Below, in pieces: positions 1,162-34,082 of a stretch of 35,735 nucleotides of DNA; the first letter of the stretch is position 1; each line of letters starts with the position of its first letter. This DNA is from a virus. Lineage: Duplodnaviria > Caudoviricetes. The position numbers and the translations under genes were made by a program. The stretch spans positions 1-35,735 of IMG/VR virus record IMGVR_UViG_3300033067_001077; one strand, given 5' to 3'. A model generated the notes under the pieces. That model was not told the origin of the DNA. It saw only the letters and a list, made by a program, of their open reading frames with translations, and did not search any database.

Positions 1162-1435
1162 TTTTGCTTTCCCTAATCTCATGATAGCCATAGAAATTCA
1201 AGGGTATGGTCAAGGACACGCTGCATATTCCTCTATGCATCAAGACTATGTACGACACAATGAAGCTGTTAGACTAGGTTGGAAAGTTTACTATTTCATG
1301 GGCAAAGACATAGAAGGAGAAGCTATCCACAAAACAATTGAATACGTGCAACGACTAATCAACCACACACACCCAACACCCCCCAGAGAAACCGGGGCGG
1401 AGTTACTAAGGAGATTACATGGTAAGACTACCTAA
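1016..1435 (+). CDS. PD-(D/E)xK endonuclease, DUF559/Vsr-like
   Basis: QFHPTRMWRFDFAFPNLMIAIEIQG...H...DYVRHNEAVRLGWKVYYF is the typical pattern of this small phage nuclease family. The start may be ATG 1025. Confidence 0.8.
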   Translation: MSTMKKKGSPQNKQFKSSLEKRFLTHWKKTGIPIATQKQFHPTRMWRFDFAFPNLMIAIEIQGYGQGHAAYSSMHQDYVRHNEAVRLGWKVYYFMGKDIEGEAIHKTIEYVQRLINHTHPTPPRETGAELLRRLHGKTT

Positions 1436-1664
1436 TCAAATCGAAGAAGAAACATTACAGAGTGCTTTCACTGATGTATTGGAGGTCTTTGATAAACATC
1501 GACTTACTGTACCTTTCGGTTTCTCTGTGTGTTTAGGTGGATTAAATTATGTAACTAAGATCCAATACGATTTATCAGAAGAACACGCCAGTGAATTAGC
1601 AGATTTAATGGCAGAAACAGTTCAAAATACAATCCATAAATTCTTACAAGATAAGGGATACTGA
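1419..1664 (+). CDS. hypothetical protein
   Basis: AAGGAG Shine-Dalgarno upstream; stop overlaps the next start (TGATG). Confidence 0.7.
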   Translation: MVRLPNQIEEETLQSAFTDVLEVFDKHRLTVPFGFSVCLGGLNYVTKIQYDLSEEHASELADLMAETVQNTIHKFLQDKGY

Positions 1665-2053
1665 TGGATAATGAAGAAGAACTCGATGAATTTCCACTAA
1701 GTGCTAGCTTAGTAAGCTGCATGATCAAATTAACTCGTGAGGAAGGAATAGCTATAAAATCATTGATAAATGAAAACTATGCTCACACTTTTCCACATTA
1801 TTGCCAACGTGTAGGAATATCTACTCCAAATTTCTACTCAACACTAAATGGTGAAAGACAATGTTCCTTAGAATTTCTTAATAAATTATTATCTGGAATA
1901 GGATATTGTGCAATTATATCTGATCCCGAAATAACTATTAAAGAGATACCACAAACTGAAATCATAATAGAACATCTAACGGAGATACCCAATGGCACGT
2001 ACGAAATGGAAATGGAGAGGGCAAACGAAGACGAAGACTTTGATTCTCCCTAA
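1664..2053 (+). CDS. XRE-like helix-turn-helix protein with acidic tail
   Basis: YCQRVGISTPNFYSTLNGERQCSLEFLNKLLSGIG resembles a Cro/cI-type HTH. Confidence 0.6.
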   Translation: MDNEEELDEFPLSASLVSCMIKLTREEGIAIKSLINENYAHTFPHYCQRVGISTPNFYSTLNGERQCSLEFLNKLLSGIGYCAIISDPEITIKEIPQTEIIIEHLTEIPNGTYEMEMERANEDEDFDSP

Positions 2054-2510
2054 TCAATATTATTTGACAACCAATTTTGAATATAATCATGAAAGTGGAA
2101 TATTTTCAAAAGATGGAAATCCGGTCGGTTCCAATATGGGTACGTATTATCAAGTCTCCATAAACAGCACAAGTTATTATGTGCACCGTTTAATTTGGAA
2201 ATACGTAACTGGTGAAGAACCAAATATAATCGATCATATAAATGGTAATGGATTAGATAATCGATGGATCAATCTACGAAATGTCGCTCACATAGCTAAT
2301 TCTAGAAACAGAAAACAACACAACAACGGAAGTGGGATAACCGGTGTAACTTTTAATCACGCCAGAGATCGTTGGAGAGCAGACATATGTTGTTCTGGAA
2401 AAACACATTATTTAGGGAGCTATATTAATGCTTTAGACGCGATTCAAGCAAGAATTGAAGCAGAGGAAATCTTTTGGGGGAAATCACATGTTCATACCAA
2501 TCTTAAATAA
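1992..2510 (+). CDS. HNH homing endonuclease with C-terminal AP2-like domain
   Basis: YYVHRLIW...IDHINGNGLDNRWINLR (HNH), then SGITGVTFNHARDRWRADI...YLGSY (AP2-like). Start uncertain. Confidence 0.88.
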   Translation: MARTKWKWRGQTKTKTLILPNQYYLTTNFEYNHESGIFSKDGNPVGSNMGTYYQVSINSTSYYVHRLIWKYVTGEEPNIIDHINGNGLDNRWINLRNVAHIANSRNRKQHNNGSGITGVTFNHARDRWRADICCSGKTHYLGSYINALDAIQARIEAEEIFWGKSHVHTNLK

Positions 2511-3192
2511 GGAAATAGTTCCAGGAGATAGCTACACTGGTGTTTCGGATTGGAGTAACTGCAAAAAATGTAGATTACATCATACAAGACACCGAGTCGC
2601 TATCAAACGAACAGGAGGAAGCGGACATGTGAAGCTGCTTTTTATAGGAGAAGCGCCAGGTGAAATGGAGAACAAGACCGGAATACCATTTGTAGGAATA
2701 GCTGGTAAAATTCTTTACCACCTATTCAAACATACTCATTTTCAGTTCCAATACTGTATAACTAACACAGTTGGTTGTCGTCCAGTAGATGTGATAATGG
2801 TTGACGAAGATTATGAATTAAACGATAGATTAACCTCAGATGACTACGAACTAATCAATTGGAACAGAGAACCAACAAAAGCGGAAATAGAACTATGTAA
2901 ACCCCACATAGATGAACTACTTGAATGGTATCAACCTCATGGAGTAGTTTATTTAGGTAAGATAGCCGAATCCTATAAAGACCCTAAATACTTAGTACCT
3001 GAAACAAAGTTATTAGAACCTGAAGCTAAGTTGTTCAAACATACAAGTTACAAAAGTGGTTTTGTTTACCGACACCCCCCAACACTTTCACTATTCCATC
3101 CAGCTTACATAGCTAGGTTAGAATACAAATTACTTACCATCAGAAAAGAAGCTAAGAAATTAGATGAATTTGTAGAAAGGTTTTTAGGATGA
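2488..3192 (+). CDS. uracil-DNA glycosylase, family 4-like (Fe-S type)
   Basis: CKKCRL, LLFIGEAPG.E...G.PFVG.AGK.L, TNTVGCRP, NREPT..EIELC, FHPAY. ATG 2488 follows a GGGGG SD. Confidence 0.88.
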   Translation: MFIPILNKEIVPGDSYTGVSDWSNCKKCRLHHTRHRVAIKRTGGSGHVKLLFIGEAPGEMENKTGIPFVGIAGKILYHLFKHTHFQFQYCITNTVGCRPVDVIMVDEDYELNDRLTSDDYELINWNREPTKAEIELCKPHIDELLEWYQPHGVVYLGKIAESYKDPKYLVPETKLLEPEAKLFKHTSYKSGFVYRHPPTLSLFHPAYIARLEYKLLTIRKEAKKLDEFVERFLG

Positions 3193-3199
3193 AACTAGT

Positions 3200-3706
3200 A
3201 TGGGCAGGACCATTAAAAGGAGGAATAACACAATGAATCCCATGAATCGTTTAAAATTACCGGATTTAGATCATCTATCATATGATCCGAATACGGGAAC
3301 AATAACAGAAAACGAACAACACGTTGGGCATATAAACCATTATGGGTACCACGTAATAAATGTAGGTGGGACCGCCTACTATGCCCACAGAATTGCTTGG
3401 AAAATTTATTACAAAGAAGAACCACCCGAACACCTAGATCATATAAATAGGGATAAAGGTGACAACAGAATTAAAAACCTGAGAAAATGTACCGATTCAG
3501 AAAACAAACGGAATCGTGGAGTACAAAAGAACAGCAAAACAACTCTGAAAGGCATAGTATTCGACCATGAACGTGGACAGTACAGAGTAACTCTTCGTAA
3601 AAACAATAAGCAACACCATTGGGGCAGATACTATAATGCACTAGATGCTATAGAAGCCCGCTTAGATGCTGAAGAATATCATTGGGGTGTAGCATGTCGA
3701 AAGTAG
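3200..3706 (+). CDS. HNH homing endonuclease with C-terminal AP2-like domain
   Basis: YYAHRIAW...LDHINRDKGDNRIKNLR, then KGIVFDHERGQYRV...WGRY. Paralog of 1992-2510. The true start may be ATG 3233 after AGGAGG. Confidence 0.88.
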   Translation: MGRTIKRRNNTMNPMNRLKLPDLDHLSYDPNTGTITENEQHVGHINHYGYHVINVGGTAYYAHRIAWKIYYKEEPPEHLDHINRDKGDNRIKNLRKCTDSENKRNRGVQKNSKTTLKGIVFDHERGQYRVTLRKNNKQHHWGRYYNALDAIEARLDAEEYHWGVACRK

Positions 3707-4707
3707 TTTGGAAGGGTCCTTTACACGGAGGAATAACCCAGTCACTGCTCACACGTTTTTTAGAGTGTCCCTACCGATTTTACTTGTATGCCGGACTTGG
3801 TTTGACTGAACCAGGTGAACCAGAACCTAATCTAGTTTGGGGTGATATATGTCACAAAGGACTAGAGTTAATCATTGAAAAGCCCTACGAGATAAGTGAG
3901 TTCACCCCAGAAGATTGGGCCGAAGTCCACCAAGGGATCGAGGAACACCAACAACGTGATTGGCCAGGAGCACCAATCACATTCCTGCCTTCGATAAAGA
4001 ACATGATCACCCTATACAACGATTCATACAAGCAAGAGTATGGAAAGTTTGTTACAGAGAATAAATTCAGTATTGAACATAAAACCGCCGGTGGCAATCG
4101 AGTAACTCTCAGGGGAAAAGCAGATGGTTGGCAAGAACAACACCACGTGTTGGTTGAACACAAGTGTAAAGGTAAAATCGATATTCAACAAACAATACGA
4201 GAAACCCCCACCGATCTCCAAGTAACGGTTTACTCATTTGTACTTGGTACCAGAATAATCATTTATGATCTAATTCGAATACCTGATACCCAATGGAGTT
4301 TGCCACCAAAGAGACAATATGAGAATCCAATCAACTATATTAAATCTCTTTACAACAATAGAGACTGGGGTGACTTCCCAATCAATACAAAGAAACACAG
4401 GTGGTTACAACAAGTACCTATTTACATAACTGATGAACAAGTCCAAGAGACAATGGCTTTGACAGTCGATCCACTAATTGACAAACTTTGTATCTATTGG
4501 GAATATGTTTCTCAACCAGAGTTTGATCACAACAACCCTAAATTCTACAATCACCTTTTCTACAGAACACCAATCCGTCATTTTGATCCATCTAGAACAC
4601 AATCTTACAAGTGTTCCTACTGGAACTTATTGACAGGTGCAATTGACATGGAAGATTTAGTAAGAGTAGATTCCTTTTATGCAGAATTGGATGATAAAGA
4701 TGGCTAA
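3694..4707 (+). CDS. PD-(D/E)xK exonuclease (RecB/Cas4-like recombination nuclease)
   Basis: ITQSLLTRFLECPYRFYL, WGDICHKGLE, LRGKADG...VEHK, DLQVTVY. Lies upstream of a Sak4-like ATPase and an SSB. Confidence 0.8.
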   Translation: MSKVVWKGPLHGGITQSLLTRFLECPYRFYLYAGLGLTEPGEPEPNLVWGDICHKGLELIIEKPYEISEFTPEDWAEVHQGIEEHQQRDWPGAPITFLPSIKNMITLYNDSYKQEYGKFVTENKFSIEHKTAGGNRVTLRGKADGWQEQHHVLVEHKCKGKIDIQQTIRETPTDLQVTVYSFVLGTRIIIYDLIRIPDTQWSLPPKRQYENPINYIKSLYNNRDWGDFPINTKKHRWLQQVPIYITDEQVQETMALTVDPLIDKLCIYWEYVSQPEFDHNNPKFYNHLFYRTPIRHFDPSRTQSYKCSYWNLLTGAIDMEDLVRVDSFYAELDDKDG

Positions 4708-4918: not shown

Positions 4919-5078
4919 AGGTTATGTAGTAGAAGGAAAGGCTACCTCACCACAAAATGCTTGTCGATTAGCCTTCAAGAAACTTATAGAAGCACAATTG
5001 ATAAAGAACACACCGCCAACTGACAATGATGCCGAATCTTCTTTTAAAGACACGAAAGTAGAGGTGATAAGTGAGTAA
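4899..5078 (+). CDS. hypothetical protein
   Basis: GAGG SD before ATG 4899; tight packing. Confidence 0.6.
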   Translation: MYRITHKGYVVEGKATSPQNACRLAFKKLIEAQLIKNTPPTDNDAESSFKDTKVEVISE

Positions 5079-5517
5079 ACTATCAAAAACTGATATCGAT
5101 GAGTTAGGGAACTCATTCGAAGAACGTATCAAAAAGATGAACGAAACATTTAAACTCCCATCTAACGACAAACCGACTGACCAAGAATTTAACAGACTTG
5201 AACAATTTCACGCTGTGATGATTGACGAACTTAGTGAATTGTGGGAGGTTTATCACACTTCTTATGGACCGCCTAATTTTGTCACTCTTGCAGACACTTT
5301 AGGAGATTTAGTAGTTTACGTCTTCTCGGAAGCACGCCGTTGGGGAATCCCATTGGTTGATGTACTCCATATCATCATGGATTCACAAGACAGCAAGCTA
5401 GTAGATGGACAACCATTGATGGCACCAGACGGATCCAAGTTCATCAAAGGCCCCAACTACATACCCCCAGAAGATAAAATCCGGGCATTGTTGGAGCGGT
5501 TGAATGGTAACCCATAA
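5071..5517 (+). CDS. MazG-like / PRA-PH family all-alpha NTP pyrophosphohydrolase
   Basis: IDELSEL...LADTLGDLVVYV...IMDSQDSKLVDGQP...DGSKFIKGPNYIPP matches the DR2231-type (dUTPase-like) phage MazG pattern. Confidence 0.82.
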   Translation: MSKLSKTDIDELGNSFEERIKKMNETFKLPSNDKPTDQEFNRLEQFHAVMIDELSELWEVYHTSYGPPNFVTLADTLGDLVVYVFSEARRWGIPLVDVLHIIMDSQDSKLVDGQPLMAPDGSKFIKGPNYIPPEDKIRALLERLNGNP

Positions 5518-7922: not shown

Positions 7923-8141
7923 ATGCTCTACCATATCTCTTTGGATGCTAACAAACATGCTAATCCACAACTATTTGACTCTCGACTCAATTTAACTATG
8001 CACGTGAATTTCGAAGGTGCTAGATCCTTCTTAGAAGAATACATCAATCGTTTACAATTAAATCCGATCTCAATTTATGAATCTCACTTACCAAATAGAG
8101 TTCAATTGATCTGTTGGTATACTATGAAAGAGAAGAAATGA
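7923..8141 (+). CDS. hypothetical protein
   Basis: AGGA SD; stop overlaps the polymerase ATG (ATGA). Confidence 0.55.
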   Translation: MLYHISLDANKHANPQLFDSRLNLTMHVNFEGARSFLEEYINRLQLNPISIYESHLPNRVQLICWYTMKEKK

Positions 8142-9979
8142 TCCTAAGTTGCGATACAGAAACTACGGGGCTTGACTTCTTTCATGGGTGTCGTCCTTTC
8201 CTAATCACAATGTGTGACGGGGAGGACAACTACTATTTTGAAGGGGATGTTAATCCCTACACCAGAGAAGTATTCTGGGAAGATGATGTTATAGCTGAAG
8301 TACAAGAACTACTAGACAGGTGCTCTATTCTTGTATTTCATAATACACAGTTCGACATCAGAGCATTATCCTTCATAGGTATCAAAATTGATCACTTATG
8401 GGACAAGATAGAAGATACCTTACTAGCTTCCCATGCCTTATGTTCAGGGGATACTCACGGATTGAAAGACCTGAGTATTAAATATCTCAACTATTGGGAT
8501 GATGATGAGAAAGATTTAGAACAAGCTATTAAAAGTATCCGTGTTAAAGCAGCAGCTAAAGGATGGGCAATAGCCAAGAAAGGACACCAACACTTTCCGG
8601 CCATGAAAGGGGCAGTCAGCTGGTGGAAACAAGATATGTGGCTAGCTCCTGAAGAATGTCTAAAGTACGCTCTACAGGATGCTGAACGTACATGGTTGTT
8701 ATGGGATGCTTTCAAAGTAGGATTGACTAATGAAGGATTATGGGCACCTTATAAATTACGGAAGAAACTATTAAAAATATGTTTTGATATGACTACGGCA
8801 GGTATGAGATTAAACCTTAAAGCCACTCAACAACATATTGACAACCTAGAACATAAGATGTTACTTATCCGTAAGTACATCGAGAAAGAGTTAAACATCC
8901 GTCATAAATTTAATTGGAACAAACGAGATCACCTGGTTAGTTTGCTACACAATCATTTACGTATACCACAATTATATACAACCCCCAAAGGTGGGCCGGC
9001 AACCGATAAGAAAGCTCTAGCTGAGTATGCTATTCATTACAAAGGGAAACTATTAAATGCTCTAATGAAGGGAAGAAAGCTAGAAACTGAGCTAAGATAT
9101 GTCTCATCTTACAAACTATGGGCTGACGACAATGGTTATATCCATTCTAATACTAACGTTACCGGTACTAGAGAAACTAGACAATCATCAACCAACCCTA
9201 ACCAACAGAACATCACGGGCAAGCTGAAAGAACTATTCCAACCACCCCCAGGAAGTGTGTGGGTAGATATTGACTTCGTGAATATTGAGTTACGTTTATG
9301 GGCTTTCTCAATTGGTAACCCAGAACTAATTGAAGCATTTTCTAAAGGTATTTCAGTTCATGAAATGATTATGGAAACCCTATATCCACGGGAATATAAA
9401 CTATACAAGACAGCACCTACTGAATACTTGAAGAAATTGTATAGGTCAGTCAAAGCAGGTAACTTTGCCATCATTTACGGAGCAACTCAAAAGAAAGCCG
9501 ATGAAACTTATGGGTATACTGGTGCTACGGCTAAAATCTATGCCCGATTTCCAGGTGTAGCTGAGTTTACGCAATCCTTGATTAAACAATGTGAAGAGAA
9601 CCGGGTTTATCTACAACGTCATGCTATACAGACTCTAGGGGGTTATTTGTTAGATGTTCCTGTCGATGAACCATTCAAAGCCTGTAATTACTACATCCAA
9701 GGTAGTGCTGGTATCATCACTACTAGAGCGATGATTGCAGTTACAAACAATGAAAGATTTATAGATTCAGGATCATGTTTAGTAGCTCAAGTACATGACT
9801 CTTTGAAACCACAAATACCGATTCATAAAGGATTATCTAAGACAATCAATTCAATTCTATACTCAATGGAAACTTGTGCTACAGACATATTTGGACCAAC
9901 ACCAGTAAGTTATGAATTGATAACTCATCCAGACGACAGAAACAATCCCTACATACTTGAAATGGAGATACCTTTCTAA
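8138..9979 (+). CDS. polA: family A DNA polymerase with 3'-5' exonuclease, no 5'-3' exonuclease
   Basis: ExoI CDTETTG, ExoII FHNTQFD, ExoIII YALQD; TRQSSTNPNQQNI; motif A DIDFVNIELR; motif B RSVKAGNFAIIYG (Phe at the E. coli 762-equivalent site); NYYIQGSA; motif C QVHDSL. Confidence 0.95.
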   Translation: MILSCDTETTGLDFFHGCRPFLITMCDGEDNYYFEGDVNPYTREVFWEDDVIAEVQELLDRCSILVFHNTQFDIRALSFIGIKIDHLWDKIEDTLLASHALCSGDTHGLKDLSIKYLNYWDDDEKDLEQAIKSIRVKAAAKGWAIAKKGHQHFPAMKGAVSWWKQDMWLAPEECLKYALQDAERTWLLWDAFKVGLTNEGLWAPYKLRKKLLKICFDMTTAGMRLNLKATQQHIDNLEHKMLLIRKYIEKELNIRHKFNWNKRDHLVSLLHNHLRIPQLYTTPKGGPATDKKALAEYAIHYKGKLLNALMKGRKLETELRYVSSYKLWADDNGYIHSNTNVTGTRETRQSSTNPNQQNITGKLKELFQPPPGSVWVDIDFVNIELRLWAFSIGNPELIEAFSKGISVHEMIMETLYPREYKLYKTAPTEYLKKLYRSVKAGNFAIIYGATQKKADETYGYTGATAKIYARFPGVAEFTQSLIKQCEENRVYLQRHAIQTLGGYLLDVPVDEPFKACNYYIQGSAGIITTRAMIAVTNNERFIDSGSCLVAQVHDSLKPQIPIHKGLSKTINSILYSMETCATDIFGPTPVSYELITHPDDRNNPYILEMEIPF

Positions 9980-12499: not shown

Positions 12500-14678
12500 A
12501 AAGAGAGATGAATACGATGAGTTTTATGATGAATATGATGATATTCCTCAAGAACAAGAATTCGAAGCTGGTAAGAAGTTTAGGCTTGCTCGATATAAGC
12601 AAAAAGAGCAAGCTGCAATGCGTGATGAATTTAATGAGGTCGGGGCTGTAGAACAAGCTACCGGCAAATACTTAGAAAAGAGGACACAATATGAAACTGA
12701 TTATGTATCTGCTCACCAAGAAGTATTTACCCGATCAACTGGAATCAAACCATTTGGTCAGACTCAGATTGACTCTGTAAACAGAACATACCACACACTT
12801 ACTCACGGGGGACGATCAGTAATTGCTGAACCCCGTGGGTTTGGTAAGAGTTCTCGTACTGCTAACAATGCTATCATGGCAATTCTTCAAGGAAAGATTA
12901 AGTATGCTTTGATACTTGGTTCATCAATTCAGAAGGCTGAAGATATTCTTGAAGCCATTAAAACTGAATTGATAGACAACGAAGAACTATACAATCTCTA
13001 CCCAAGAGTCTGTGAATGCTGTAGACACGGCGGCGAATCACCCCAGAGAGCAGCCCGCCAGACGTACATGGGTAAGAAAACTCACTTGAAGTTTGGCAAA
13101 TATATGATCAAGATGCCGGTTCTACCTGATGAACCGTCATCTGGATCAATTATACAAGTTAGATCAAAAGACAATGTTCGTGGTCTAGCTGTCAAGATTA
13201 GATACGGTGAGGAATCTGGTAGAGTATTGCGTCCCGATTTCGCTTTCTTGGATGATATACAAACAGATGAAGAAGCAGAATCACCTACGTCCGTTTGGAA
13301 GATTATACAAACGATTAAGAAGTCCGTACTGTTTGCTGGTTCTCACTCACGTCGGATTTCTGCTGTTATGTGTTGTACTCCCATTTGTCCTGGGGATGTT
13401 TCTAGTCACTTTATTCTAAACGAACCATCATGGGATTATATCGTATCTCCTATGATACGGAAGATGCCCACCCATTTAGACATGTGGTTAAATGACTACG
13501 CTAGGATTCTATTAGATTTCGATAGACACGTAACAGGGGACAGATTAAAAGCTAAACTCAGGGCTAGAAAGTTTGTAGAAGAGAACTATGAGAAGATGCA
13601 CGAAGGTTCAGAGATAGCTTGGGAATGGGCTTATGCTTGGCAAGAAGATCCTCAAACTGAAATAAGCGCATTACAGCACGCTATGAATTTCAAGATTGAA
13701 GAAGGTGATGACGCCTTCGAATCTGAGTGCCAATGCAATGTGGCTCCACGAGTTGATGAAGTAGAAGGTATCAAAGCCACTCTTGATGAAATCATGAGCA
13801 AAGTTCATGAGTTCCCAAGACGTAAATGCCCAGTAGAAACTAAGTTTATCGTCACCCACATCGACGTAAACAAGAATCTATTGACATACACAACTGTAGC
13901 TTCACCTAAAGAATTCCGTCCAATGGTTATAGATAAAGGTGAATGGCCAGAACAACAAGGAGCAACATGGACAAAGAAAGATATTATTTACACCCTTAAA
14001 CGTAAGTATCCTGATATCCCGGAACACCATGAGAGAGTTTATTGGGGATTGCGTTCATTGCTCAATTACATAGGCAATCTCACTTACATTCGTGAAGATA
14101 ACCTAGTAATGCACAATAACCTAATCATGGTCGATATGGGTTATCAAATCGATGAAGTACAAAGAGCTATAAGAGACTGTGACTATCGTAACATTTCTAT
14201 GTGTTATCGTGGTCAAGGTATCCGTGCTAAAGACAAACCCTTTATGGACAGACACTATGAAAAGTTTGCAGAGAAGCATTTCCATTGTGCAACAGTTCCT
14301 ACAACAGATCGTACTCTCACTGTACTGTATTCTGACGTCAACTACTTCAAGACCGCCTTCCATAAAGGAATCAAATCTAGATCAGACATAGGAGGCAGCA
14401 TATCCCTGTACACCCCAGAAAGACAGTCGGAGCACCTGCTATTAGCTAAACACTGTCTAGCTGAGATCCCTCAAGAAGATTATTTTGATAAAGAAGATCG
14501 TCGTGTAATCTTTTGGGAAAATCCTAAAGAAGAGGACAATGAATATTTTGACAACATCGTCGGCTGTTTAGCTGGTCTTTTTAAGTTAGGGTGTGAAATC
14601 CGTGGAAAGAAAAAGAAACAAGGTACCTACTCCATCAAAGACTACATCGACAAACAAAAACAATCACGAGGGGATTGA
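12492..14678 (+). CDS. terL: terminase large subunit
   Basis: IAEPRGFGKS (Walker A), RPDFAFLDDIQTD (Walker B), CCTPI (coupling motif); GpA-like nuclease THIDVN, VDMGYQ, NEYFDNIVG. Confidence 0.85.
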   Translation: MAKKRDEYDEFYDEYDDIPQEQEFEAGKKFRLARYKQKEQAAMRDEFNEVGAVEQATGKYLEKRTQYETDYVSAHQEVFTRSTGIKPFGQTQIDSVNRTYHTLTHGGRSVIAEPRGFGKSSRTANNAIMAILQGKIKYALILGSSIQKAEDILEAIKTELIDNEELYNLYPRVCECCRHGGESPQRAARQTYMGKKTHLKFGKYMIKMPVLPDEPSSGSIIQVRSKDNVRGLAVKIRYGEESGRVLRPDFAFLDDIQTDEEAESPTSVWKIIQTIKKSVLFAGSHSRRISAVMCCTPICPGDVSSHFILNEPSWDYIVSPMIRKMPTHLDMWLNDYARILLDFDRHVTGDRLKAKLRARKFVEENYEKMHEGSEIAWEWAYAWQEDPQTEISALQHAMNFKIEEGDDAFESECQCNVAPRVDEVEGIKATLDEIMSKVHEFPRRKCPVETKFIVTHIDVNKNLLTYTTVASPKEFRPMVIDKGEWPEQQGATWTKKDIIYTLKRKYPDIPEHHERVYWGLRSLLNYIGNLTYIREDNLVMHNNLIMVDMGYQIDEVQRAIRDCDYRNISMCYRGQGIRAKDKPFMDRHYEKFAEKHFHCATVPTTDRTLTVLYSDVNYFKTAFHKGIKSRSDIGGSISLYTPERQSEHLLLAKHCLAEIPQEDYFDKEDRRVIFWENPKEEDNEYFDNIVGCLAGLFKLGCEIRGKKKKQGTYSIKDYIDKQKQSRGD

Positions 14679-21200: not shown

Positions 21201-23426
21201 TCACGGTCTTCAGGTGGAGCGGCTATTGATTTCAGCAGTGCGGGTCATAGTGCGACGTACACCGCCATCGTCAGTGACGATACTGTTGAGTGGGAATACT
21301 TCTCGCCTGTAGCTGAGCTAGAAGAAATCTATGAAGGTGAAGCACTCGCAGCGGGATTACCAGCAGTTACAGGAAATCTCACCTTAAACTCAGACGGAAG
21401 TTCTTCTAACTGGTACAAAGCCAACACGTATATTAGTCAGAAGGTATTGTCTGGAGATTTCGACATTACATTTAAGATCATGGCAGGAGATCCTCCTGAC
21501 GGCCAATCTCACATGGTTGGTGTTACGAGTCTCACCTCTGCCACGGAATTTAACAACTACCAAAACTTTGAATATGGCGTTTTGTGGTATGGGCCAACGG
21601 AAGTAGAAATATCGCGGCTAGCAGTCCAGAAAAACTACACCATTGCTGGATGGGGTAATAATTTAGTACGTCTAGTAAGAACCGGCACGACTATCGACAT
21701 GTACATCAACGATGTACTAATCGCACTCGAAACAGCGACATTTACAGCTAATGCAGGGACAGACGTAATTACCAGTGCTGCCCACGGGCTGGACGATAAC
21801 AGGCCAGTACGTTTTGAAGGAGTTGATTTACCTGCGGGCATTGTCGAAGGAACAGTTTACTACGTTATGGATAGTACAACAGATACCTTCAGGATAAAGA
21901 TGACGCCAGTAATAGCATTGTTTAGTGCAAATGACACGACAGATATAATCACCAGTACAGCCCACGGACTAACGGATGGTTGGCCAATACTCTTTTCTGG
22001 AGTAGAGCTTCCTAGCGGCATAATTGCAGGAACAACCTATTACGTCAGAGATAAAACAACAGACACGTTCAAGATAGCAGCCACAGTTGGAGGAGCAGCG
22101 ATTGATATACTTGACGTCGGTAATTACGAGATGTGGTGGGAAGGTGCAGCAGTAAACATTACTGATGTTGGTAGTGGGACAATGACATTCTTTGCCAACG
22201 CAATCGTCGATACTGATTTGCACCCAATGTACTCTGCATACGATTTAGTAAACTCTCATGCTATTCTCTACAACGATGACTACAAACCAACGCAGCAAGG
22301 GGCTGCATTGATAGATAGTTTAGAACCCATTCAAGCCAAGGATGAATTTGAAACTATCCCATCAACAGCTACTCCCACGTTCCGTTGGACCATCTTTCCC
22401 GGTCGTACCAAGATGATGGAGCTAACAGCTAATGTTACCTCCATGGCATTATTGGTCAATGAAGCAGGAGAATACCGAATTATATTCACCCAGGATGCAA
22501 CTGGCGGACGAACGGTAGTGTGGCCAGGAGGAATTAAAGGCACACAACCTACTCTGAACTTGCTCGGCGGTGAAAGCACTATCTTTAATTTGATTTACAC
22601 CGGGATTGATTGGTACTGGGGCAACGTCGTTACAGATGAAAGAGTCAACGTCACTCTCAATGGAACAGCGGCAGGAGTAGCGTGGGACATCACTAACACA
22701 TATGTTAGCAACGACACCCTGACTGGTGATTTCGATATTACATTTGACTTCATCGACCGTACCCAAAACTATATTGTTGGAGTCACAACAAACACGCTAC
22801 CAACTGCATCAGCGAATTACACTGTGCCTGATTTTGGTGCATACCATTTTACTGACGGATTTGTGCAAATTTACAAACGAGGCGCGACGACAAATTACGC
22901 TATCCCTACGTTCGGCAATGGATTAGTGAGGATGGTGCGGACTGGTTCAAATATGGATTTGTATGTCAATAACGCCTTGGTGGCGGCTGCTAACGACCCA
23001 GCATTCACAACAGACCCAGTGCGGCGAATATATACCGCAGAAGTATCGGCATCTGCCGAATGTGTTCTGTTTGGGGATTTAAGCACTCCGATTGCAATCG
23101 GTTCAAACCTAACGCAAGTTAACGACGCTATTCCAGACGAAAACGGTGTCGAAACCGTGTCATTCAGCGCAACAGCGTCATTCAACTTCGCTGTTGACCC
23201 ACGCAAAAACAAAACAATGACGCTGACTGGCAACGCCACAGGTCTGGTAGTAATTGCTCCGACCCCAGGAGTGTACTACATTTCCCTTACCCAGGATGGA
23301 ACCGGTGGTAGAACAGTAGCTTGGGCCACGACCATCAATGGTACTGCACCAACTATGTCGGCTGGAGCAGGGACCAGTACGTTGTTTCCTATTTATTCCA
23401 ACGGCACAGATTTATTTTGGATGTAA
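18231..23426 (+). CDS. 1731-aa tailspike/fibre-like protein (pectate-lyase-type beta-helix plus repeated accessory domains)
   Basis: VSVAHWGAVPD...NNSPMIQAAFD...VFVPPGSYRL (Pectate_lyase_3-type start); Asn-rich beta-helix; four ~70-aa 'AHGL' modules; two lectin-like + TQD.TGGRTV.W units. Confidence 0.8.
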   Translation: MSVFLPTQPPTSVPTAGDLATPSARTGNGFVVSTTGESTPGDNGAAAYIYHRTGRSGQVMDSGAYRAGPGVDDWWEVTKKDVLNLSIYPIDNTGIVDDGYLPLTNDVPGETLLVNEGVYLIASNYTLNRRVQFENGARFKIANGFNVHLSAGYVAEPTQWVFDISDGGTVTVDNMPGVSVAHWGAVPDHTYSPDFGTNNSPMIQAAFDACNQMAGTFSYVEPKRPEVFVPPGSYRLLTGVVLKNLCNLHGPGATFWYWGSQASDGAILTIGADTGVDFEEIELGTFTLPSVSGNPSRTVIPVAEEEFVGIRIDECGSSVFYCELTNYVAIGLQLRPNVTSGFGSYVAHNHFLNHKAWNVKWAIDFVWQWHQTQAGYNGWANENVFTNCNWTQDGSTIWYGTTAGCRMRCINARPDLPKWDFGGNNNNRFFGQCYQPAGEFAGTRLAVGLAVVQNRRYFNPDTRQEYICDVTGTVATVPTNTDLAQSPADVNGIRFTHRGPYFHAPIYLDNNGGSNMWHGIRWEYGDGACCYIANSGQDPPVANISRGNEIVLYDYSRQNADREGKVIIDDYTLARRNELAGMRNTGRMYGNDLNDKYVISDIHKRFIASAQALTIRGMQFYNPQTKRVVDYADYGLDDWILLKNAVGETTYQTIGVVVDLAESRRIQSHFTIAPVKNVFTVDIATNEIICNNHNLPPYTPIVFEGEDLPGGLKKNAKYFTVYDPTPDPDRFQVSAINYGSVVDITDIGSGEMTFYSTAASGSNAVVPLDGDGKFVDVTTATQNDCVSNGYWNSGIHIWQIGSEPLYFGLGTNQNITKAFIGYSGIPSLATHLELSAVPGGTVNAGLINIVTPDKERFSKGIPTGGFFLEANEFIRNYTQEAFTSSGWRVRQTGALARHWAVGEDVRATELRTSDGKIYAAINSGTTGATAPTGNTPVTFTANATTNEIEKTAHGLTNGKKVKFTGAYLPGNIIQNTIYFVVGTTANTFQVSRSSGGAAIDFSSAGHSATYTAIVSDDTVEWEYFSPVAELEEIYEGEALAAGLPAVTGNLTLNSDGSSSNWYKANTYISQKVLSGDFDITFKIMAGDPPDGQSHMVGVTSLTSATEFNNYQNFEYGVLWYGPTEVEISRLAVQKNYTIAGWGNNLVRLVRTGTTIDMYINDVLIALETATFTANAGTDVITSAAHGLDDNRPVRFEGVDLPAGIVEGTVYYVMDSTTDTFRIKMTPVIALFSANDTTDIITSTAHGLTDGWPILFSGVELPSGIIAGTTYYVRDKTTDTFKIAATVGGAAIDILDVGNYEMWWEGAAVNITDVGSGTMTFFANAIVDTDLHPMYSAYDLVNSHAILYNDDYKPTQQGAALIDSLEPIQAKDEFETIPSTATPTFRWTIFPGRTKMMELTANVTSMALLVNEAGEYRIIFTQDATGGRTVVWPGGIKGTQPTLNLLGGESTIFNLIYTGIDWYWGNVVTDERVNVTLNGTAAGVAWDITNTYVSNDTLTGDFDITFDFIDRTQNYIVGVTTNTLPTASANYTVPDFGAYHFTDGFVQIYKRGATTNYAIPTFGNGLVRMVRTGSNMDLYVNNALVAAANDPAFTTDPVRRIYTAEVSASAECVLFGDLSTPIAIGSNLTQVNDAIPDENGVETVSFSATASFNFAVDPRKNKTMTLTGNATGLVVIAPTPGVYYISLTQDGTGGRTVAWATTINGTAPTMSAGAGTSTLFPIYSNGTDLFWM

Positions 23427-26833: not shown

Positions 26834-26835
26834 GA

Positions 26836-27072
26836 ATGGCCAGCGAATATGTATTCAGAATTGAAAAGAGAGAACCTGAACATCCATTGACACCAAAAGT
26901 GTTAGCAGAATTCGGGTGCAATAGCGACGACCCAAAAGCATTGGTTGAAGCTGTGGTAGCGTTTGGTGAACTATTAAAGATTTACAAAACACCAGAGAGT
27001 GTGTGTAGTTGGATGAAAAGCAACGCCGATTTCCAGCGTGCTAAATTGTTTGTAGAAGAGACTTTTAATTAA
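26836..27072 (+). CDS. hypothetical protein
   Basis: GAGG SD; tight packing. Confidence 0.6.
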   Translation: MASEYVFRIEKREPEHPLTPKVLAEFGCNSDDPKALVEAVVAFGELLKIYKTPESVCSWMKSNADFQRAKLFVEETFN

Positions 27073-27084
27073 AGGCAACTGAAA

Positions 27085-27540
27085 ATGGCAGCATACGCAA
27101 GAGTCGCAGTAGCACGCAGTGGAGCGGGATGGACGGTAACTTCCAATGCTGTATCACTAGCAGCCATTGCATCATTCCCAGCAATGTCGGGTGGTGCTGG
27201 TGGAACAGTAACGCACTTTGGTGTGGGTTACGAAGCACTTGGTGGTGCTAACGGACTAGCATTTTTCGGTACAGTCACACCGAATATCGTAGTCTCGAAC
27301 GGAGTGACACCGAAGCTAGACACAGGAACCACCATCACTCAGGCAGCATCGGACGGCATGACTACAGCAGCGGCTAACTCTTTCCTATTGTTGTTTTTTA
27401 ACAACACGGACTGGGCTGTTGTTGGAGATGCGGCTGGTTTGCAGAATTCAGCAGCGGCAGGAAGTTTGTATCTCAGTCTCCACACTTCCAGCCCAGGTGA
27501 AGCGGGCACACAAGCAACTAACGAGATAAGCTACACCTAA
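27085..27540 (+). CDS. small tail-fibre-associated virion protein, apparently circularly permuted
   Basis: Contains both halves of a common phage protein (LLL.FNN...LYLSLHT..PGEAG...NE.SY and YARVAVARS..GW...FP...THFG...GVTP), but in swapped order. Confidence 0.7.
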   Translation: MAAYARVAVARSGAGWTVTSNAVSLAAIASFPAMSGGAGGTVTHFGVGYEALGGANGLAFFGTVTPNIVVSNGVTPKLDTGTTITQAASDGMTTAAANSFLLLFFNNTDWAVVGDAAGLQNSAAAGSLYLSLHTSSPGEAGTQATNEISYT

Positions 27541-27542
27541 TT

Positions 27543-29224: not shown

Positions 29225-30601
29225 ATGTTGACGTCCTTAACGCTACGAAATACCCCAATCGATCAAGATGATTGGAGGCTAATTCCAAGACGAGAATATA
29301 AGATTGCATTAGGTAATCCTATGTTCCGTAAAAAGATACGAGAAGTATCTGCTCAAGAAGATGAAGAGAACAGTTACTACACCGGTATCCTCAATACTAT
29401 AGCTGAACACTGTGTAGGATCAGTTCCACTCATACTAGGAAACCACCCCTCCCCAGAAGCAAACGACGCAGTCGAGGATAAATGGTTGGAGTGGGCTTCC
29501 TCTAATTCAATTGGAACAGCTATCAGACAAATACGTCGAGGGGCTGCTAGGACTGGATTAGGTATCGGTATCCCCTATAAACTGATAGATCCATTAGACC
29601 CTATTGGATTCGGAATCAAAACAGTTTCTTCACTGAGACTGACCAATCCACGTAACGTAGGAATTTTTGATCGTATTTATGACGGTATTGAATACGATGA
29701 AAATTGGGATATCAAGAAGATTTACCTGAAAGAATACGGGGAACAGGATCCAGTCGAATACAATGCCAAAGATGTATTGTTGTGGTTCAAACGAACAACA
29801 GAAGATATGTTGATAGGAATGCCTGAATGCGGACCAGCTTTCTGTTTATTCCCATCAATAAAAAGATATATGAATGCAATTGTTCGAGGAGAAGAATTCC
29901 GATCATGTATTCCTATGGCCATCACGCTAGACAAAGATGTTTATCGGCCAGAAGATTCAGTAGATGTACCGACAGACAGCTTCGAGTACGAACCAGGCTT
30001 CATACCAACACTCCCCCCAGGAACAGAACTCACCGGTATCCCTGTGAGTAATCAATCAGATGATAGAACTAAATTCATCTATCTGATTGTTTCTGCTGCT
30101 GCTCGTTGTGTCCAAATGCCAAGAAACATTGCTCTTGGTGACAGTGCTGATAGTAATATGGCTACAGCAGCTATTGATATTCAACCTTGGATTAACAAAG
30201 TAAAGATCGATAGAGTAGACTTTCAACCAATAGTTCGAAAAGTATTCCAGATGTGGTATGATCGAGCTATCTTGGTAAAGAACTATCTACCGATTCAAGC
30301 AAGATCAGGATTCACATACGCTATCAATTATGATAGTACATTTGAACACCCTGATCCAGGTAAACGAGCAAATGCTAGAGCAGTAGATCTTTCATCCGGA
30401 TCAACTACTCTACACCGTGTTTACACGGACCAAGCTTTGAACCCACGACGAGAGCTAGATAGAGAAGCTAGAACCTTGGGAATCAGCAGACAAGAATTGA
30501 ACGAGATAATTATTGCATCTCGATCAAATGCTCCATTCTTGCTACAAGACCCTGAAGATGAACCAGTAAAGAAAGGAACCAAGAATGGAGATAGAAAATG
30601 A
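29225..30601 (+). CDS. portal protein (lambda gpB-like family)
   Basis: 458 aa, before the protease-capsid gene; ENSYYTGILNTIAEHCVG, IYDGIEYDE, TLPPG, ALGDSADSNMATA, HPDPGKRANA. Confidence 0.85.
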   Translation: MLTSLTLRNTPIDQDDWRLIPRREYKIALGNPMFRKKIREVSAQEDEENSYYTGILNTIAEHCVGSVPLILGNHPSPEANDAVEDKWLEWASSNSIGTAIRQIRRGAARTGLGIGIPYKLIDPLDPIGFGIKTVSSLRLTNPRNVGIFDRIYDGIEYDENWDIKKIYLKEYGEQDPVEYNAKDVLLWFKRTTEDMLIGMPECGPAFCLFPSIKRYMNAIVRGEEFRSCIPMAITLDKDVYRPEDSVDVPTDSFEYEPGFIPTLPPGTELTGIPVSNQSDDRTKFIYLIVSAAARCVQMPRNIALGDSADSNMATAAIDIQPWINKVKIDRVDFQPIVRKVFQMWYDRAILVKNYLPIQARSGFTYAINYDSTFEHPDPGKRANARAVDLSSGSTTLHRVYTDQALNPRRELDREARTLGISRQELNEIIIASRSNAPFLLQDPEDEPVKKGTKNGDRK

Positions 30602-32672
30602 AGCAATAACTAAAGATGATTTATGGTTAGCTAATGAAGCAATAAAACCCGATCCAGAAGCTATCCACATCACTTGTGCAGCTAAAGCATCCATCCCAGA
30701 GAATGGGCCACCAAAGCTAACATTCCAAGGATATAGTGGGGATTCAGTTGATCTTTCTGATTATGGTTTTGACTATCCCGTAGTATACGATATTGCGGGT
30801 ATTCAACTCCAACAGAAAACACCCATCTACTACAATCATTACGATGCTATCGGCCACACAACATCGTTAAGAAAAGTAGACAATGGAACTGCTTTGAGAG
30901 GTAAAGGAGTTGCCTCGTTACCCGGTCCCAATACTACGAAAGTAGTTGAAGGAGCTAAGAACGGATTCCCTTGGCAAGCTAGTATGGGTTTGAAAGTGAG
31001 TAACTGGAAAACCGATATTCGATTGCACGATAAAGGTGTTGTTAAAGTTAATAACCGAGACTTTACCGGACCTATCTACGTTGTTAATAAATCGGTCTTA
31101 CGTGAAATGACTGTTACTCCTTTCGGTCGTGACAGCAATACAAGTTTCGAATTCCTCAACAAGGAGAAAAGAATGGAAATCAAGAATGCTAACACACCCC
31201 CAACTGAAGTTAAGGAAGTAATTCCGCCTGTAACTAAAGTTGAAAACACTCCTCCAGCTGATCCTCCAAAAGAAGAGAAGAAGGAAGAGAAGAAAATCGA
31301 GAATGCTCCACCAGTTGTACCACCCGTACATTCTGGTGTGACAGGTCTCGATCCTGTTACCAAACGGGCTATGGCTCTTCTCAACAAATATCCTGGAAAG
31401 TGGGACCTTATCGAGAAAGGAATCGAGAATGGTTGGGATGATGAATCCATTGACAACAGCATCAAGTTGGCAGAGTTGAATAACAACCTACCAACCCCAC
31501 CCTCCCCAGGATATAAGAAGGGGGATGCTATCGAGAATCAAATGCTGGTCAACATGGCTCTATCTTTCGGTGCTAAACCGGAATATTTGGCCAAGAAGTT
31601 TGATCAGAAATTGGTTGACAATGCTGATTCCCGTCCACAAATGGGTATCCAAGAACTGTTGGTAAATGCAGCCAACATGTCCGGTGGAAACTTCCAAGGT
31701 TATTCCGATCCGGAAGCCGTTTGTAAGTTTCTAAAGAATACAGGATACTCAACGTTCGATCTACCTGACTTTTTCCAACGAGTGGGAACAGTCTTGAAAG
31801 ACGAACGTTGGGAGATCGGTGCTCCATTTGCAACAACAGTTTGCAAGGAAGGTAGCAATCGTGACTTCCGTACCACTGAACGACTCCGTATGACTGGCGG
31901 AGATATGTGGAATCAAGTAGCCGACGATGGTAAGCTTGAACTCTATTCGGCTGGTAATCAGAAGAAGTATCAAACAACATTGGAAACTTACGGAACCATC
32001 TTCACGATGACCCGTAAAGAAGTGGCCAATGATGACATGGATACCCTTGGTGATATGATGGACATGATGGTCGAAGGGGCTATGATGATCCCGGACTATC
32101 AACTTGGCCTTCGTATGATTAATCAAGCTCCAGCAGCTAACACTTTCTGGGTGGATGACGACAATAGCTTTGATAACACGGCTTTGACAGCACCAAACTT
32201 GTCAACAGCTTTCAATGCTATCCGTCAGTACACGGAATCCAAAGCACGGATCAATTGGAACGTGATGCTCAACGAACGTTGGTCATTGATCGTTTCTCCT
32301 AACTTGGAAGAAGCTGCATGGAATCTTATCAAGCAAGATAAGATCGTAAACGATACCACCGCCAACACTAAGACCGGTGACAAGAACTACTGGTTCGGTC
32401 GATTCGATCTTAAAGTGTTTGGTCAAATGGCTAACACAAGTGCTTTCCCAAGTGGAAGCAAATTTGTTGGCAATACGACTTGGATCCTGTGGCCATCGTC
32501 TCTACGATTTGCTCCATACGAAATTACTTACTATCGAGGACAAAAGAAGCCCGTAATCGAAGCAGTCGATATGCCTGCCACATTGCTTGGATTTGGTACT
32601 CGTGGTTATTGGGATGTCAAGATCAACGAACGAGAACGTACTGCTGTATCCCGATACACAGCTACAGCCTAA
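30585..32672 (+). CDS. prohead protease-scaffold-major capsid protein fusion
   Basis: Protease: GYSG...PIYYNH...IGHT...FPWQASMG...LREMTV.PFG.D..T. Pro/Glu/Lys-rich linker. HK97-fold MCP: STFDLP, DFRT, LETYG.IF.MTR..VANDD, LIVSPNLE. Confidence 0.88.
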   Translation: MEIENEAITKDDLWLANEAIKPDPEAIHITCAAKASIPENGPPKLTFQGYSGDSVDLSDYGFDYPVVYDIAGIQLQQKTPIYYNHYDAIGHTTSLRKVDNGTALRGKGVASLPGPNTTKVVEGAKNGFPWQASMGLKVSNWKTDIRLHDKGVVKVNNRDFTGPIYVVNKSVLREMTVTPFGRDSNTSFEFLNKEKRMEIKNANTPPTEVKEVIPPVTKVENTPPADPPKEEKKEEKKIENAPPVVPPVHSGVTGLDPVTKRAMALLNKYPGKWDLIEKGIENGWDDESIDNSIKLAELNNNLPTPPSPGYKKGDAIENQMLVNMALSFGAKPEYLAKKFDQKLVDNADSRPQMGIQELLVNAANMSGGNFQGYSDPEAVCKFLKNTGYSTFDLPDFFQRVGTVLKDERWEIGAPFATTVCKEGSNRDFRTTERLRMTGGDMWNQVADDGKLELYSAGNQKKYQTTLETYGTIFTMTRKEVANDDMDTLGDMMDMMVEGAMMIPDYQLGLRMINQAPAANTFWVDDDNSFDNTALTAPNLSTAFNAIRQYTESKARINWNVMLNERWSLIVSPNLEEAAWNLIKQDKIVNDTTANTKTGDKNYWFGRFDLKVFGQMANTSAFPSGSKFVGNTTWILWPSSLRFAPYEITYYRGQKKPVIEAVDMPATLLGFGTRGYWDVKINERERTAVSRYTATA

Positions 32673-32704
32673 TTAACAATCATTTCAAGTAACAGGAGAA
32701 CCAA

Positions 32705-33205
32705 ATGCCAATTGCAACACCAAATCGGATTGCTGATCCGGTATCTTTGGAAGCATATGAACCACCGTGTATCCTTCGTCAAGAAGGCGGGTTGTTCATC
32801 CCTTTCAAGAATACAAGCACCACTACCTCATTTGTAGCCGGTGAACCAGTATTCTACTTCGGTAGAACATGTATCGTACAAAAGACCATCCTTCCAGGAA
32901 AGATTGGGACATTGATCTCAGACTTTATGGTCGATGCTCTTTTGAACGTGAACCATTCAGGAAATATCACACAAGACTCTCTAGTTTATTGGGATCTTGA
33001 TCTGGATGCTTCCTTAATTATCGGCACCACCACAGTCTCTAGCGGACTGGGAGCAGCTACGAACCAAATACCTTCCAACGGATTTATGTTAGGTAGGGCG
33101 GTGATGGTCAATCCGGACGACACATATACTGCCGTAACTGGCAGCAAACGTGTTCGAGTAGTATCCTTGCCTGGTGCACCAACCACTTACGGTACCTACT
33201 ACTAA
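32705..33205 (+). CDS. capsid cement/decoration protein (DUF2190-like)
   Basis: Directly after the MCP; VAGEPV..G....IVQKTILPGKIGTL...LVYWD...LGRAV...VRV. Confidence 0.65.
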   Translation: MPIATPNRIADPVSLEAYEPPCILRQEGGLFIPFKNTSTTTSFVAGEPVFYFGRTCIVQKTILPGKIGTLISDFMVDALLNVNHSGNITQDSLVYWDLDLDASLIIGTTTVSSGLGAATNQIPSNGFMLGRAVMVNPDDTYTAVTGSKRVRVVSLPGAPTTYGTYY

Positions 33206-33588
33206 TGGCTAACTTCATGCAACAGGGGCTGACGTGGTTTCAAACCCAACGTCAGCTCCATTGTACTGAAGACATATTGATTGGATTCACCAAACTTACT
33301 GCTCAAACTATCAAAGCTACAGCATCAAGTGACGATGCTCAATCCACTCAAAATCATGTTACAATCCAGAAACAGATATTTCATTTCGTAGTAAGACGAA
33401 GTGACTTAGTAAGCAAGTCGATCAAGCTGCAACGTGGATTAAAAATCTGGTACAAACATGATGAGTACGAGTTGACATATGAATCCAAAGATATGTACGA
33501 GTACAATGATCCAACTAGATTGGATATAATACTGAAAGCTGTCCTAGTTGACGATGTAAATCCACTCCACCCATCCTACGGAACGTAA
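33205..33588 (+). CDS. head-tail joining protein (gpFII-like)
   Basis: Position and size; MANFMQQGLTWF...FVVRRSDL...RG.KI. Confidence 0.55.
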   Translation: MANFMQQGLTWFQTQRQLHCTEDILIGFTKLTAQTIKATASSDDAQSTQNHVTIQKQIFHFVVRRSDLVSKSIKLQRGLKIWYKHDEYELTYESKDMYEYNDPTRLDIILKAVLVDDVNPLHPSYGT

Positions 33589-33590
33589 TA

Positions 33591-34082
33591 GTGACTGCTG
33601 TATTACCTGATCTAACAGATACGATGATCACAGCACTAAACTCCGCCCCAGGAGGAACGTGGACGGAGTACACCGTTGGAACGGGTAGCAGTGATTTTGT
33701 TGAAGCTACACCAGTTATTGATCCAGAAACGTTTTTTGAGAGTAAGAAAACTGGTTTGTTTGTTGTACCTGTCACTGTACAATACAATAGACAAGCTAGT
33801 TTGGGTAGACAGAAGATTGTTAGTTTGAATAGAGCACCAGTAATTGCAATCTGTTTATCCTACCGATTTCCTACTGTAGACTCAACCGGTACAGATGTTT
33901 CCACTTGGACGTTAATCAAGAAATTACTAACCCTGAGAGAAGACATTGACACCTACTTGCTCAAGAAACAATGGGACTGGAACATACTAGCAGCGACAGC
34001 AGAACCTGCCCAGGAAATTCCGTTGAAGGCTAGATGGTATCTATCAGTAACAGAGATCGAGTTTGAAGGAATGAGTTGTTAA
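33591..34082 (+). CDS. putative tail terminator / completion protein
   Basis: Position in the head-tail cluster; C-terminal LSVTEIEF strand. Confidence 0.5.
   Translation: MTAVLPDLTDTMITALNSAPGGTWTEYTVGTGSSDFVEATPVIDPETFFESKKTGLFVVPVTVQYNRQASLGRQKIVSLNRAPVIAICLSYRFPTVDSTGTDVSTWTLIKKLLTLREDIDTYLLKKQWDWNILAATAEPAQEIPLKARWYLSVTEIEFEGMSC

Follow-up and report, generated by a model that had tools for sequence, protein, structure and literature searches.

A strand-polarised CCCCAGRR element that may serve a phage family as recognition site of its own primase

The IMG/VR record IMGVR_UViG_3300033067_001077 is a 35.7 kb phage fragment (35,735 nucleotides, called the window below), in which the + strand holds all genes and also carries many copies of the octamer CCCCAGRR. 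The genes encode a ligase, a uracil-DNA glycosylase, a PD-(D/E)XK exonuclease, a Sak4-like protein, a single-stranded DNA-binding protein (SSB), a family A DNA polymerase (PolA) and a primase-helicase as well as a GpA-like terminase, a fibre block, a lambda-type portal, a protease–capsid fusion and tail genes. Our subject is this word, which, as far as can be told from sequence comparison, probably resembles a primase recognition site in its behaviour.

CCCCAGRR occurs 18 times on the + strand and once on the − strand of the window (table 1). When codons were shuffled synonymously gene by gene (n = 1000), the + strand carried 2.54 copies on average and nine at most, i.e. none of the 1000 shuffles reached 18, and the observed count is outside the range of this protein-preserving control, which the original prediction had proposed. 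That prediction had also placed all 18 + strand copies exactly and found the lone − strand copy. Since shuffling leaves a mean of 0.89 copies on the − strand, this single copy is ordinary; an expectation of about one copy per strand, as voiced earlier, is too low for the + strand. The word does fall in all three reading frames, as had been claimed, although unevenly so, with its first C at codon position 2, 1 or 3 in 14, three and one of the sites, respectively. Strict copies are indeed absent from 18.4-23.2 kb and 24.3-29.4 kb, but weak matches to a weight matrix built on the sites of the phage family described below, from which the additional sites and the scores in table 1 also derive, are found there at 19129, 22488, 27176 and 27491. 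The fibre/accessory block (18231-28604) has few sites and a higher G+C content than the rest of the window, and 10 of its 11 tested open reading frames (ORFs) are without homolog in 17 relatives, with the remaining one giving a single match of 28%. The block was thus likely acquired recently, in agreement with an earlier impression of recent exchange.

Table 1. Copies of the word in the window, additional sites found with the family weight matrix, and three genes of the replication module.
Feature	Position	Strand	Remarks
Core CCCCAGAG	1381..1388	+	matrix score 20.2; element ~ −20 to +22 around first C
Core CCCCAGAA	3905..3912	+	in PD-(D/E)XK nuclease gene; aligned position kept in 5/12 genomes
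Core CCCCAGAA	5465..5472	+	
Core CCCCAGAA	7613..7620	+	
Core CCCCAGGA	9246..9253	+	in polA; aligned position kept in 10/14 genomes
Core CCCCAGAA	11147..11154	+	in primase gene
Core CCCCAGAA	11943..11950	+	in primase gene; aligned position kept in 9/14 genomes
Core CCCCAGAG	13041..13048	+	in terminase gene
Core CCCCAGAA	14413..14420	+	in terminase gene; aligned position kept in 8/14 genomes
Core CCCCAGAA	15534..15541	+	
Core CCCCAGAA	17802..17809	+	
Core CCCCAGGA	18346..18353	+	
Core CCCCAGGA	23263..23270	+	weak flanks, score 10.8
Core CCCCAGAA	24270..24277	+	
Core CCCCAGAA	29451..29458	+	in portal gene
Core CCCCAGGA	30015..30022	+	in portal gene; aligned position kept in 11/14 genomes
Core CCCCAGGA	31504..31511	+	in capsid gene
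Core CCCCAGGA	33646..33653	+	
Additional site TCCCAGAA	283..290	+	outside strict pattern; score 16.9
Additional site TCCCAGAG	30694..30701	+	outside strict pattern; score 15.0
Additional site TTCCAGGA	32892..32899	+	outside strict pattern; score 15.4
Additional site GCCCAGGA	34008..34015	+	outside strict pattern; score 14.6
Sole strict reversed copy	13388..13395	−	in terminase gene; count within chance
PD-(D/E)XK exonuclease	3682..4707	+	travels with replication module; alternative candidate reader of the word
Family A DNA polymerase with 3'-5' exonuclease (PolA)	8114..9979	+	in motif-travelling replication module
Primase-helicase, 673 aa	10478..12499	+	putative reader of the word; Pfam Toprim_2 and AAA, PHROG primase

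The word is not peculiar to the window. Seventeen relatives from IMG/VR (34-54 kb, G+C content 34-46%) are syntenic with it and encode primases that are 40-83% identical; most genome pairs share less than 3% of their 14-mers, with G002/G009/G010 and G007/G019 being closer. In all 17 relatives the word is polarised along the genes (15 to 56 copies on the + strand versus 0 to 10 on the − strand), and across the pooled set of 18 CCCCAG ranks first among all 4096 6-mers (730 versus 260) and CCCAGGA first among the 7-mers (489 versus 109). On the − strand of the window CCCAG is depleted (14 versus 30.7 expected); avoidance of antisense copies was rejected as a family trait, with a − strand count of 482 versus 545 across the family (rank 291 of 1024 from the bottom).

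CCCCAGRR is the core of an approximately 40-nucleotide element that is under selection at synonymous sites. This anatomy is based on 420 non-redundant family sites, 364 of them in ORFs, a set in which some orthologous sites may be represented repeatedly. The 5' side is A/C-rich and poor in T and G from −20 to −5 and continues into C-Y-Y-H; the core, CCCCAG-R-A-A-A, is followed by a G/C-rich stretch from +12 to +22. At synonymous third positions, C is in excess at −2 (134 versus 56) and G at +13 (73 versus 25) and +16 (76 versus 22), and T is reduced at −14 (38 versus 70); the flank bias that had been described by eye is therefore real. Sites are spaced more evenly than random in 15 of the 18 genomes (coefficient of variation (CV) 0.36-0.78 versus about 0.97), with mean gaps of 455-1466 bp, i.e. 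the element is kept approximately every 0.5-1.5 kb. Site density is nearly the same inside and outside of ORFs (1.12 versus 1.05 per kb), flat within genes and 1.15-1.44 per kb in all five genome sectors. In seven core genes compared across 14 genomes, however, 53 of 87 site positions are each occupied in a single genome, and only five are common to 8-11 genomes; density is thus maintained while most sites turn over.

The primase-helicase of the window is a DnaG-type enzyme whose catalytic residues appear intact: alignment shows a zinc-binding domain (C23, C26, C42 and a fourth Cys), a TOPRIM domain (E156, D203/D205) and an MCM-like AAA+ helicase with the motif GPPGCGKT. Both Pfam and PHROG give primase matches for the N-terminal and an AAA match for the C-terminal part, and a structural model (predicted local distance difference test score 89) matches Twinkle, T7 gp4, Aquifex DnaG and MCM subunits. 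There are 1688 cluster representatives of this protein family at E ≤ 1e-30, with no match among 50,697 annotated phage records and none found in a search of prokaryote genomes. In three genomes (G087, G091 and G092) primase and MCM-like helicase are encoded by two neighbouring genes without fusion.

More distant carriers of such primases were compared in a set of 201 loci of at least 9 kb, 173 of which have a readable zinc domain and 125 of which remained after removal of redundancy. In clade A6 (47 loci, G+C content 35-64%) YYCCAGRR ranks first among the 128 YY-xxxx-RR words (ratio 1.45), with z>2 in 24 loci, whereas in clades A4 and A5 it ranks 32nd and 68th of 256 (ratios 1.12 and 1.09), with z>2 in nine of 75 loci (L322, a locus of the family itself that sits in this set, is left out of the last count but counts towards the A5 ratio). 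The enrichment is confined to the exact context: single-base variants give 0.83-1.06, RRCCAGRR 0.88-0.98 and the Dcm word 0.95-0.97, a value that rules out a Dcm/very-short-patch (VSP) repair bias in the distant loci. A subclade with primase identities of only 23-28% (L374, L347, L383, L384 and G089) is polar like the window, with for instance 43 versus 12 copies on the + strand and 7 versus 5 on the − strand of L374; here the 5' tract is T-rich, whereas it is C-rich in the family, and the G peak on the 3' side is common to both. In the complete genome G089 (57.6 kb), which has the polar word, a profile search found only primase, PolA and PD-(D/E)XK nuclease in common with the family and detected neither its virion genes nor the ligase nor a conserved candidate nuclease (phrog_503), which we take to be Vsr/DUF559-like. 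Four stretches that encode the terminase, portal and capsid of the family show no enrichment of the word. Together, these data indicate that the word follows the replication module and not the packaging, ligase, Vsr-like nuclease, HNH or helix-turn-helix (HTH) genes. The HNH and HTH proteins originally suggested as readers are not family-wide, and the ligase, which had been brought up with T5, is missing from G089.

Whether a signal in DNA or in RNA is selected can be judged from genes that run against the others. None of the 32 reverse ORFs examined in the family is a real reversed gene, all of them resembling shadows, and this comparison was therefore made in 45 distant loci that do have reversed genes. 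On the strand of the primase gene, YYCCAGRR is enriched not only in forward genes (320 versus 177) but also inside reversed genes (50 versus 30, z 4.1); the corresponding counts on the other strand are 29 versus 20 and 285 versus 229. Enrichment antisense to genes favours a DNA signal, and argues that the element acts on the DNA strand whatever the direction of the gene. Within the family, reversed copies are not avoided (TCCTGGG, 67 versus 41) and abound in one sector, with 50 versus 13.8 in the 8 kb past the tail tube gene and, in sums, 79 versus 26.8 from the capsid gene to +14 kb as compared to 52 versus 42.8 left of the capsid gene. In 12 genomes this excess peaks 2-4 kb left of a non-coding gap behind the tail genes (19 versus 4) and fades leftward. 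Inverted sites do not mark an origin in the last 3.5 kb, where there is no excess (0.12 versus 0.10 per kb). A candidate origin is seen in two relatives, G003 (~50.1-50.3 kb) and G007 (~47.5-47.7 kb), as non-coding iterations of AAAAAA-CCCAGRA followed by one inverted copy.

The genome-wide cis-acting signal that the original prediction had postulated is thus supported, and among the candidates it had listed a primase site appears to fit best, with RNA or antitermination sites and Chi/KOPS-like sites being disfavoured. From sequence comparison, we consider it fairly probable that the word is the place at which the phage's own primase, a DnaG-type enzyme fused to the MCM-like helicase, starts. 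The main replication fork would then run with transcription, making the + strand the lagging-strand template, on which the primase would read 5'-(G-poor, pyrimidine-leaning tract)-CC|AG-R-AAA-(G-rich patch)-3'. The 3' part of this site would be left uncopied, and a purine-rich primer (pppGG...) would begin opposite the C run and copy the G-poor tract. As such a site would be too long to occur frequently by chance, its presence in codons at the distances of Okazaki fragments would be the work of selection. The weaker reversed sites, found from the capsid gene up to the post-tail gap, would be used by a second fork that starts at an origin near this gap and moves leftward over a short distance. 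The mean gaps between sites are on the scale of Okazaki fragments, which are reported to be 1-6 kb long in T7 (PMC12839067).

Known priming systems offer parallels to such a site as well as differences. DnaG-type primases are described as using a short template site with an uncopied 3' base and a two-purine start (PMC2978363), and as making use of 3' flanks (PMC2978363; PMC12839067). The closest counterpart is T7 gp4, in which a zinc-binding domain and a TOPRIM primase are likewise fused to a helicase, and whose site, 5'-(G/T)2GTC-3', is reported to have an A/T-rich spacer or discriminator and a distal −10 element in its 3' flank (PMC12839067). Like the element described here, it combines a core having a compositional side with an A-rich spacer and a distal element ~8-10 nucleotides 3' of the core, at kilobase spacing. 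In contrast to T7, however, the sequence is different, the core is longer, the helicase is MCM-like rather than DnaB-like, and the sites show a 7-fold polar enrichment and an even spacing, neither of which is found in T7; both T7 and E. coli reportedly prime at a small share of their short sites (PMC12839067). For bacterial DnaG, the initiation trinucleotides CTG, CTA and TTA (PMC2978363) and, in Aquifex, CCC (PMC2532735) have been reported, and a two-purine primer start would here be possible from either strand (CCA/CCC on the + strand, CTG on the − strand). Unlike our element, such trinucleotides are present by chance alone and do not have to be written into a genome, and their specificity maps to residues of the zinc-binding domain, a link not seen here. 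A phage primase with an 8-nucleotide site that is read and yet uncopied is the NrS-1 primase-polymerase (5'-TTTGGTTA-3'; PMC8718748), which differs in having the archaeo-eukaryotic primase fold with a helix bundle, in making DNA primers and in an unrelated site sequence. Phages with superfamily 6 helicases and associated primases are also on record (PMC4889955).

If the element is a primase site, the opposite orientation is also quite possible: with the − strand as template, an E. coli-like 5'-CTG-3' would be read and the primer, pppAG-R-AAA, would be purine-rich as well. Template pyrimidines for a two-purine start are present on either strand, and are hence a weak test. We favour the + strand as template for two reasons: AG-R-A is invariant, whereas the 5' side is defined by composition and varies from lineage to lineage, and the excess of reversed sites declines to the left of the post-tail gap, which is what a short fork moving leftward would require.

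Several observations speak against a primase start site or weaken its support. Spacing is not significantly regular in the window itself (CV 0.72, P 0.07) and in G006 and G014, nor in the distant L374, G089 and L384 (P 0.49, 0.12 and 0.06). The sector excess of reversed sites reaches P≤0.02 in only eight of the 15 genomes having the sector, and several of these sites lie at orthologous protein motifs, i.e. not all of them are independent. The fork direction and the origin are what we infer, and four-fold GC skew had to be given up as a guide to the former, as it has the same sign in T7. The known pentamers of T7 show only a mild enrichment (z 1-4), which extends to both strands. In clades A4 and A5 no comparable word accompanies the same type of primase, and the four packaging-only controls are just 15-29 kb long. 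Site and zinc-binding domain do not co-vary detectably: in 538 tests of site against residue the best t was 2.9. The residues D41 and K43 flanking the third zinc cysteine (D-C-K) did seem linked to the word (1.42 versus 1.14, Mann–Whitney U test p 0.002, with a split picked after seeing 14 genomes), but this link is lost under phylogenetic generalised least squares (t −0.6) and does not hold within clades (p 0.09, 0.88 and 0.06); moreover, D41/K43 are not equivalent to the T7 positions D31/H33. What the word is associated with is therefore a clade of the entire replication module, for which PolA, the nuclease or a common host lineage could account just as well. CCGC was rejected as a cognate word of R-C-x primases (p 0.91). 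In 52 distant loci with a basic residue or Q before and a hydrophobic one after the third zinc cysteine, YYAGCCRR/YYGGCTRR stands at 1.23 versus 0.88 in D-C-K loci (p 2e-6, a statistic without phylogenetic control), which could reflect a cognate word or a host effect.

Among other explanations, the one that survives best is a Chi-like or a loading or pausing site read by another enzyme of the same module, i.e. the PD-(D/E)XK exonuclease with the Sak4-like annealing protein, the helicase domain or PolA. These genes co-travel with the primase in the motif-bearing distant phages, for which reason the clade association cannot separate them, and a signal that stops a nuclease would likewise go well with polarity and even spacing. 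We nevertheless regard this as unlikely, since A4-type genomes contain the same gene types without the word, a 29.6 kb fragment (G093) has the word on both strands and no PD-(D/E)XK match, and the long compositional 5' tract would be better suited to a template that is copied.

Somewhat more improbable is a role as programmed nick site in the virion DNA, of the single-strand kind known from T5, phiKMV and tf, even though the family encodes a ligase and the conserved Vsr/DUF559-like nuclease candidate. Neither of these is detected in the polar genome G089, HNH genes occur in only two of the 17 relatives, and up to 100 sites per 50 kb plus the reversed ones would break up both strands; nor is the word restricted to one strand, with reversed copies being enriched in the tail sector. 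The likeness to the nick consensus of phage tf and LUZ24-like phages lies in a word on one strand, with tf described as having 14 nicks, each in a 9-mer and none on the other strand of its 46 kb genome (PMC3517423), but nicks are physically shown there, whereas here the word is known from sequence and the candidate nickases do not track it.

A mimic of a polar signal of the host, i.e. Chi for RecBCD/AddAB or KOPS for FtsK, would bring to mind the Chi-rich lambdoid phages LLS and MD8, cos-type genomes reported to bear 20-32 oriented octamers (PMC12315714). The GpA-like terminase and the conserved contig ends of our family would agree with this, and clade A6 might have a common host lineage. The lambdoid phages are, however, described as using a word of their host, as having no Rec module and as clustering their sites at the right end (PMC12315714), whereas the family has a Sak4-like/SSB/nuclease module of its own and uniform sites without right-end clustering. 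The nearest terminases in prokaryote genomes are found in four metagenome-assembled genomes of Planctomycetaceae (26-29% identity) and in two other bacteria (28-31%); with identities this low and such mixed bacteria, a planctomycetal host (Planctomycetota) can be assigned only tentatively. The phages have 432 copies of CCCCAGRAA per Mb, as compared to ~3-106 per Mb in 61 Planctomycetota genomes; in many of the latter this is close to the control with the reversed pattern, and within the listed contigs the orientation is mixed. Weak as this host assignment is, a host mimic seems quite improbable to us.

Even less credit can be given to a site in RNA, such as nut/ops-like reloading of an antitermination complex along one 50 kb transcription unit. 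Genes on one strand behind a sigma70-like promoter would suit it, as would the fact that sense copies are the most enriched class (1.81, and 1.48 in reversed genes) and that sites fold slightly better than swapped controls (−6.11 versus −5.85 kcal/mol). Against it stand the enrichment of antisense copies as well as the lack of positional preference within genes and the equal density in and out of ORFs. Furthermore, a hairpin or boxB model is ruled out: 176 position pairs show no covariation beyond one distant pair (z 3.8), the core is mostly unpaired, and downstream GGG runs, which were counted because the swap control is blind to pairing with the invariant C run, occur at the shuffled rate (0.18 versus 0.18). 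An Rfam search with the element gave no match. Finally, the view that the word has no function and results from codon use, Pro-rich linkers or biased repair of the Dcm/VSP type, suggested by x-P-E/G being encoded at 14 of the 18 sites and by the many sites that protein-keeping shuffles still yield, is already refuted by a count that no shuffle reached, by NNCCAGGN not being enriched, and by a sub-random spacing and a flank selection that mutation bias would not give.

A search of the open-access literature found no paper on this word or on this phage family, and both are new. How primases choose start sites and what determines the length of Okazaki fragments are open questions, and here evolution has apparently marked the chosen sites: hundreds of natural variants define a weight matrix, and the primase-helicase is an unstudied one. 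The case contributes a matrix for a whole family, a sector of reversed sites and a word that accompanies a replication clade through 47 distant loci. If a primase site is indeed what is written, fork direction and origin could be read from sequence alone. More speculatively, a widespread, never-cultured primase lineage may use a tripartite site of ~40 nucleotides so strict that codons carry it in each kilobase; its map would then be the replication programme, in which the main fork follows the direction of transcription and a second, short one leaves an origin behind the tail genes in the opposite direction, and the G-rich patch would be a helicase brake that times priming.

Both genome ends have features of their own. 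At the left end of several relatives lies what by eye is a sigma70-like promoter, and ~25 nucleotides before the right contig end eight of them (G001, G002, G003, G008, G009, G011, G014 and G015) have a conserved AGGTTCTT, preceded by short direct repeats; this is likely a packaging signal, presumably similar to lambda cosQ, and together with the promoter at the starts it suggests fixed cos-type ends. Right-terminal regions of very restricted composition, with GAGCTC, CTCCC and TTGCT repeats that cross ORFs and spacers and contain CCCAGGA in both orientations, are found in G001 (47.3-48.9 kb) and G009 (51.0-52.5 kb, both in gene orientation). The 18 pooled genomes strongly avoid CTGCAG (20 versus 220), GGATCC, CCATGG, GGTACC, CTGAAG and GAAGAC, which are likely host restriction sites and thus a clue to the host.

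In G017, the record of the locus L033, arrays of a 36-bp unit that contains GCCGGCGT and a second block like TGAGACCG extend over ~44-71 kb (57 copies on the + and nine on the − strand, many of them tandem, both intergenic and inside reversed ORFs) and resemble iterons or a degenerate repeat array. GCCGGCGT was therefore dismissed as a counterpart of CCCCAGRR, as was TGCTCCTC of the same record, which occurs on both strands at irregular spacing without flanks and partly represents Leu codons and Shine–Dalgarno sites. In the window, a secreted-looking protein of 310 amino acids adjoins a trypsin-like protease (16019-17863) and has 85 unnamed metagenomic homologs; homolog searches with its ORF (16019-16951) gave no clue to the host. 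Two nucleotide pyrophosphohydrolases (5071-5517 and 15423-15818; phrog_671, dATP/dGTP diphosphohydrolase PF18909) and the uracil-DNA glycosylase (2455-3192) possibly serve the control of nucleotide pools or base modification.

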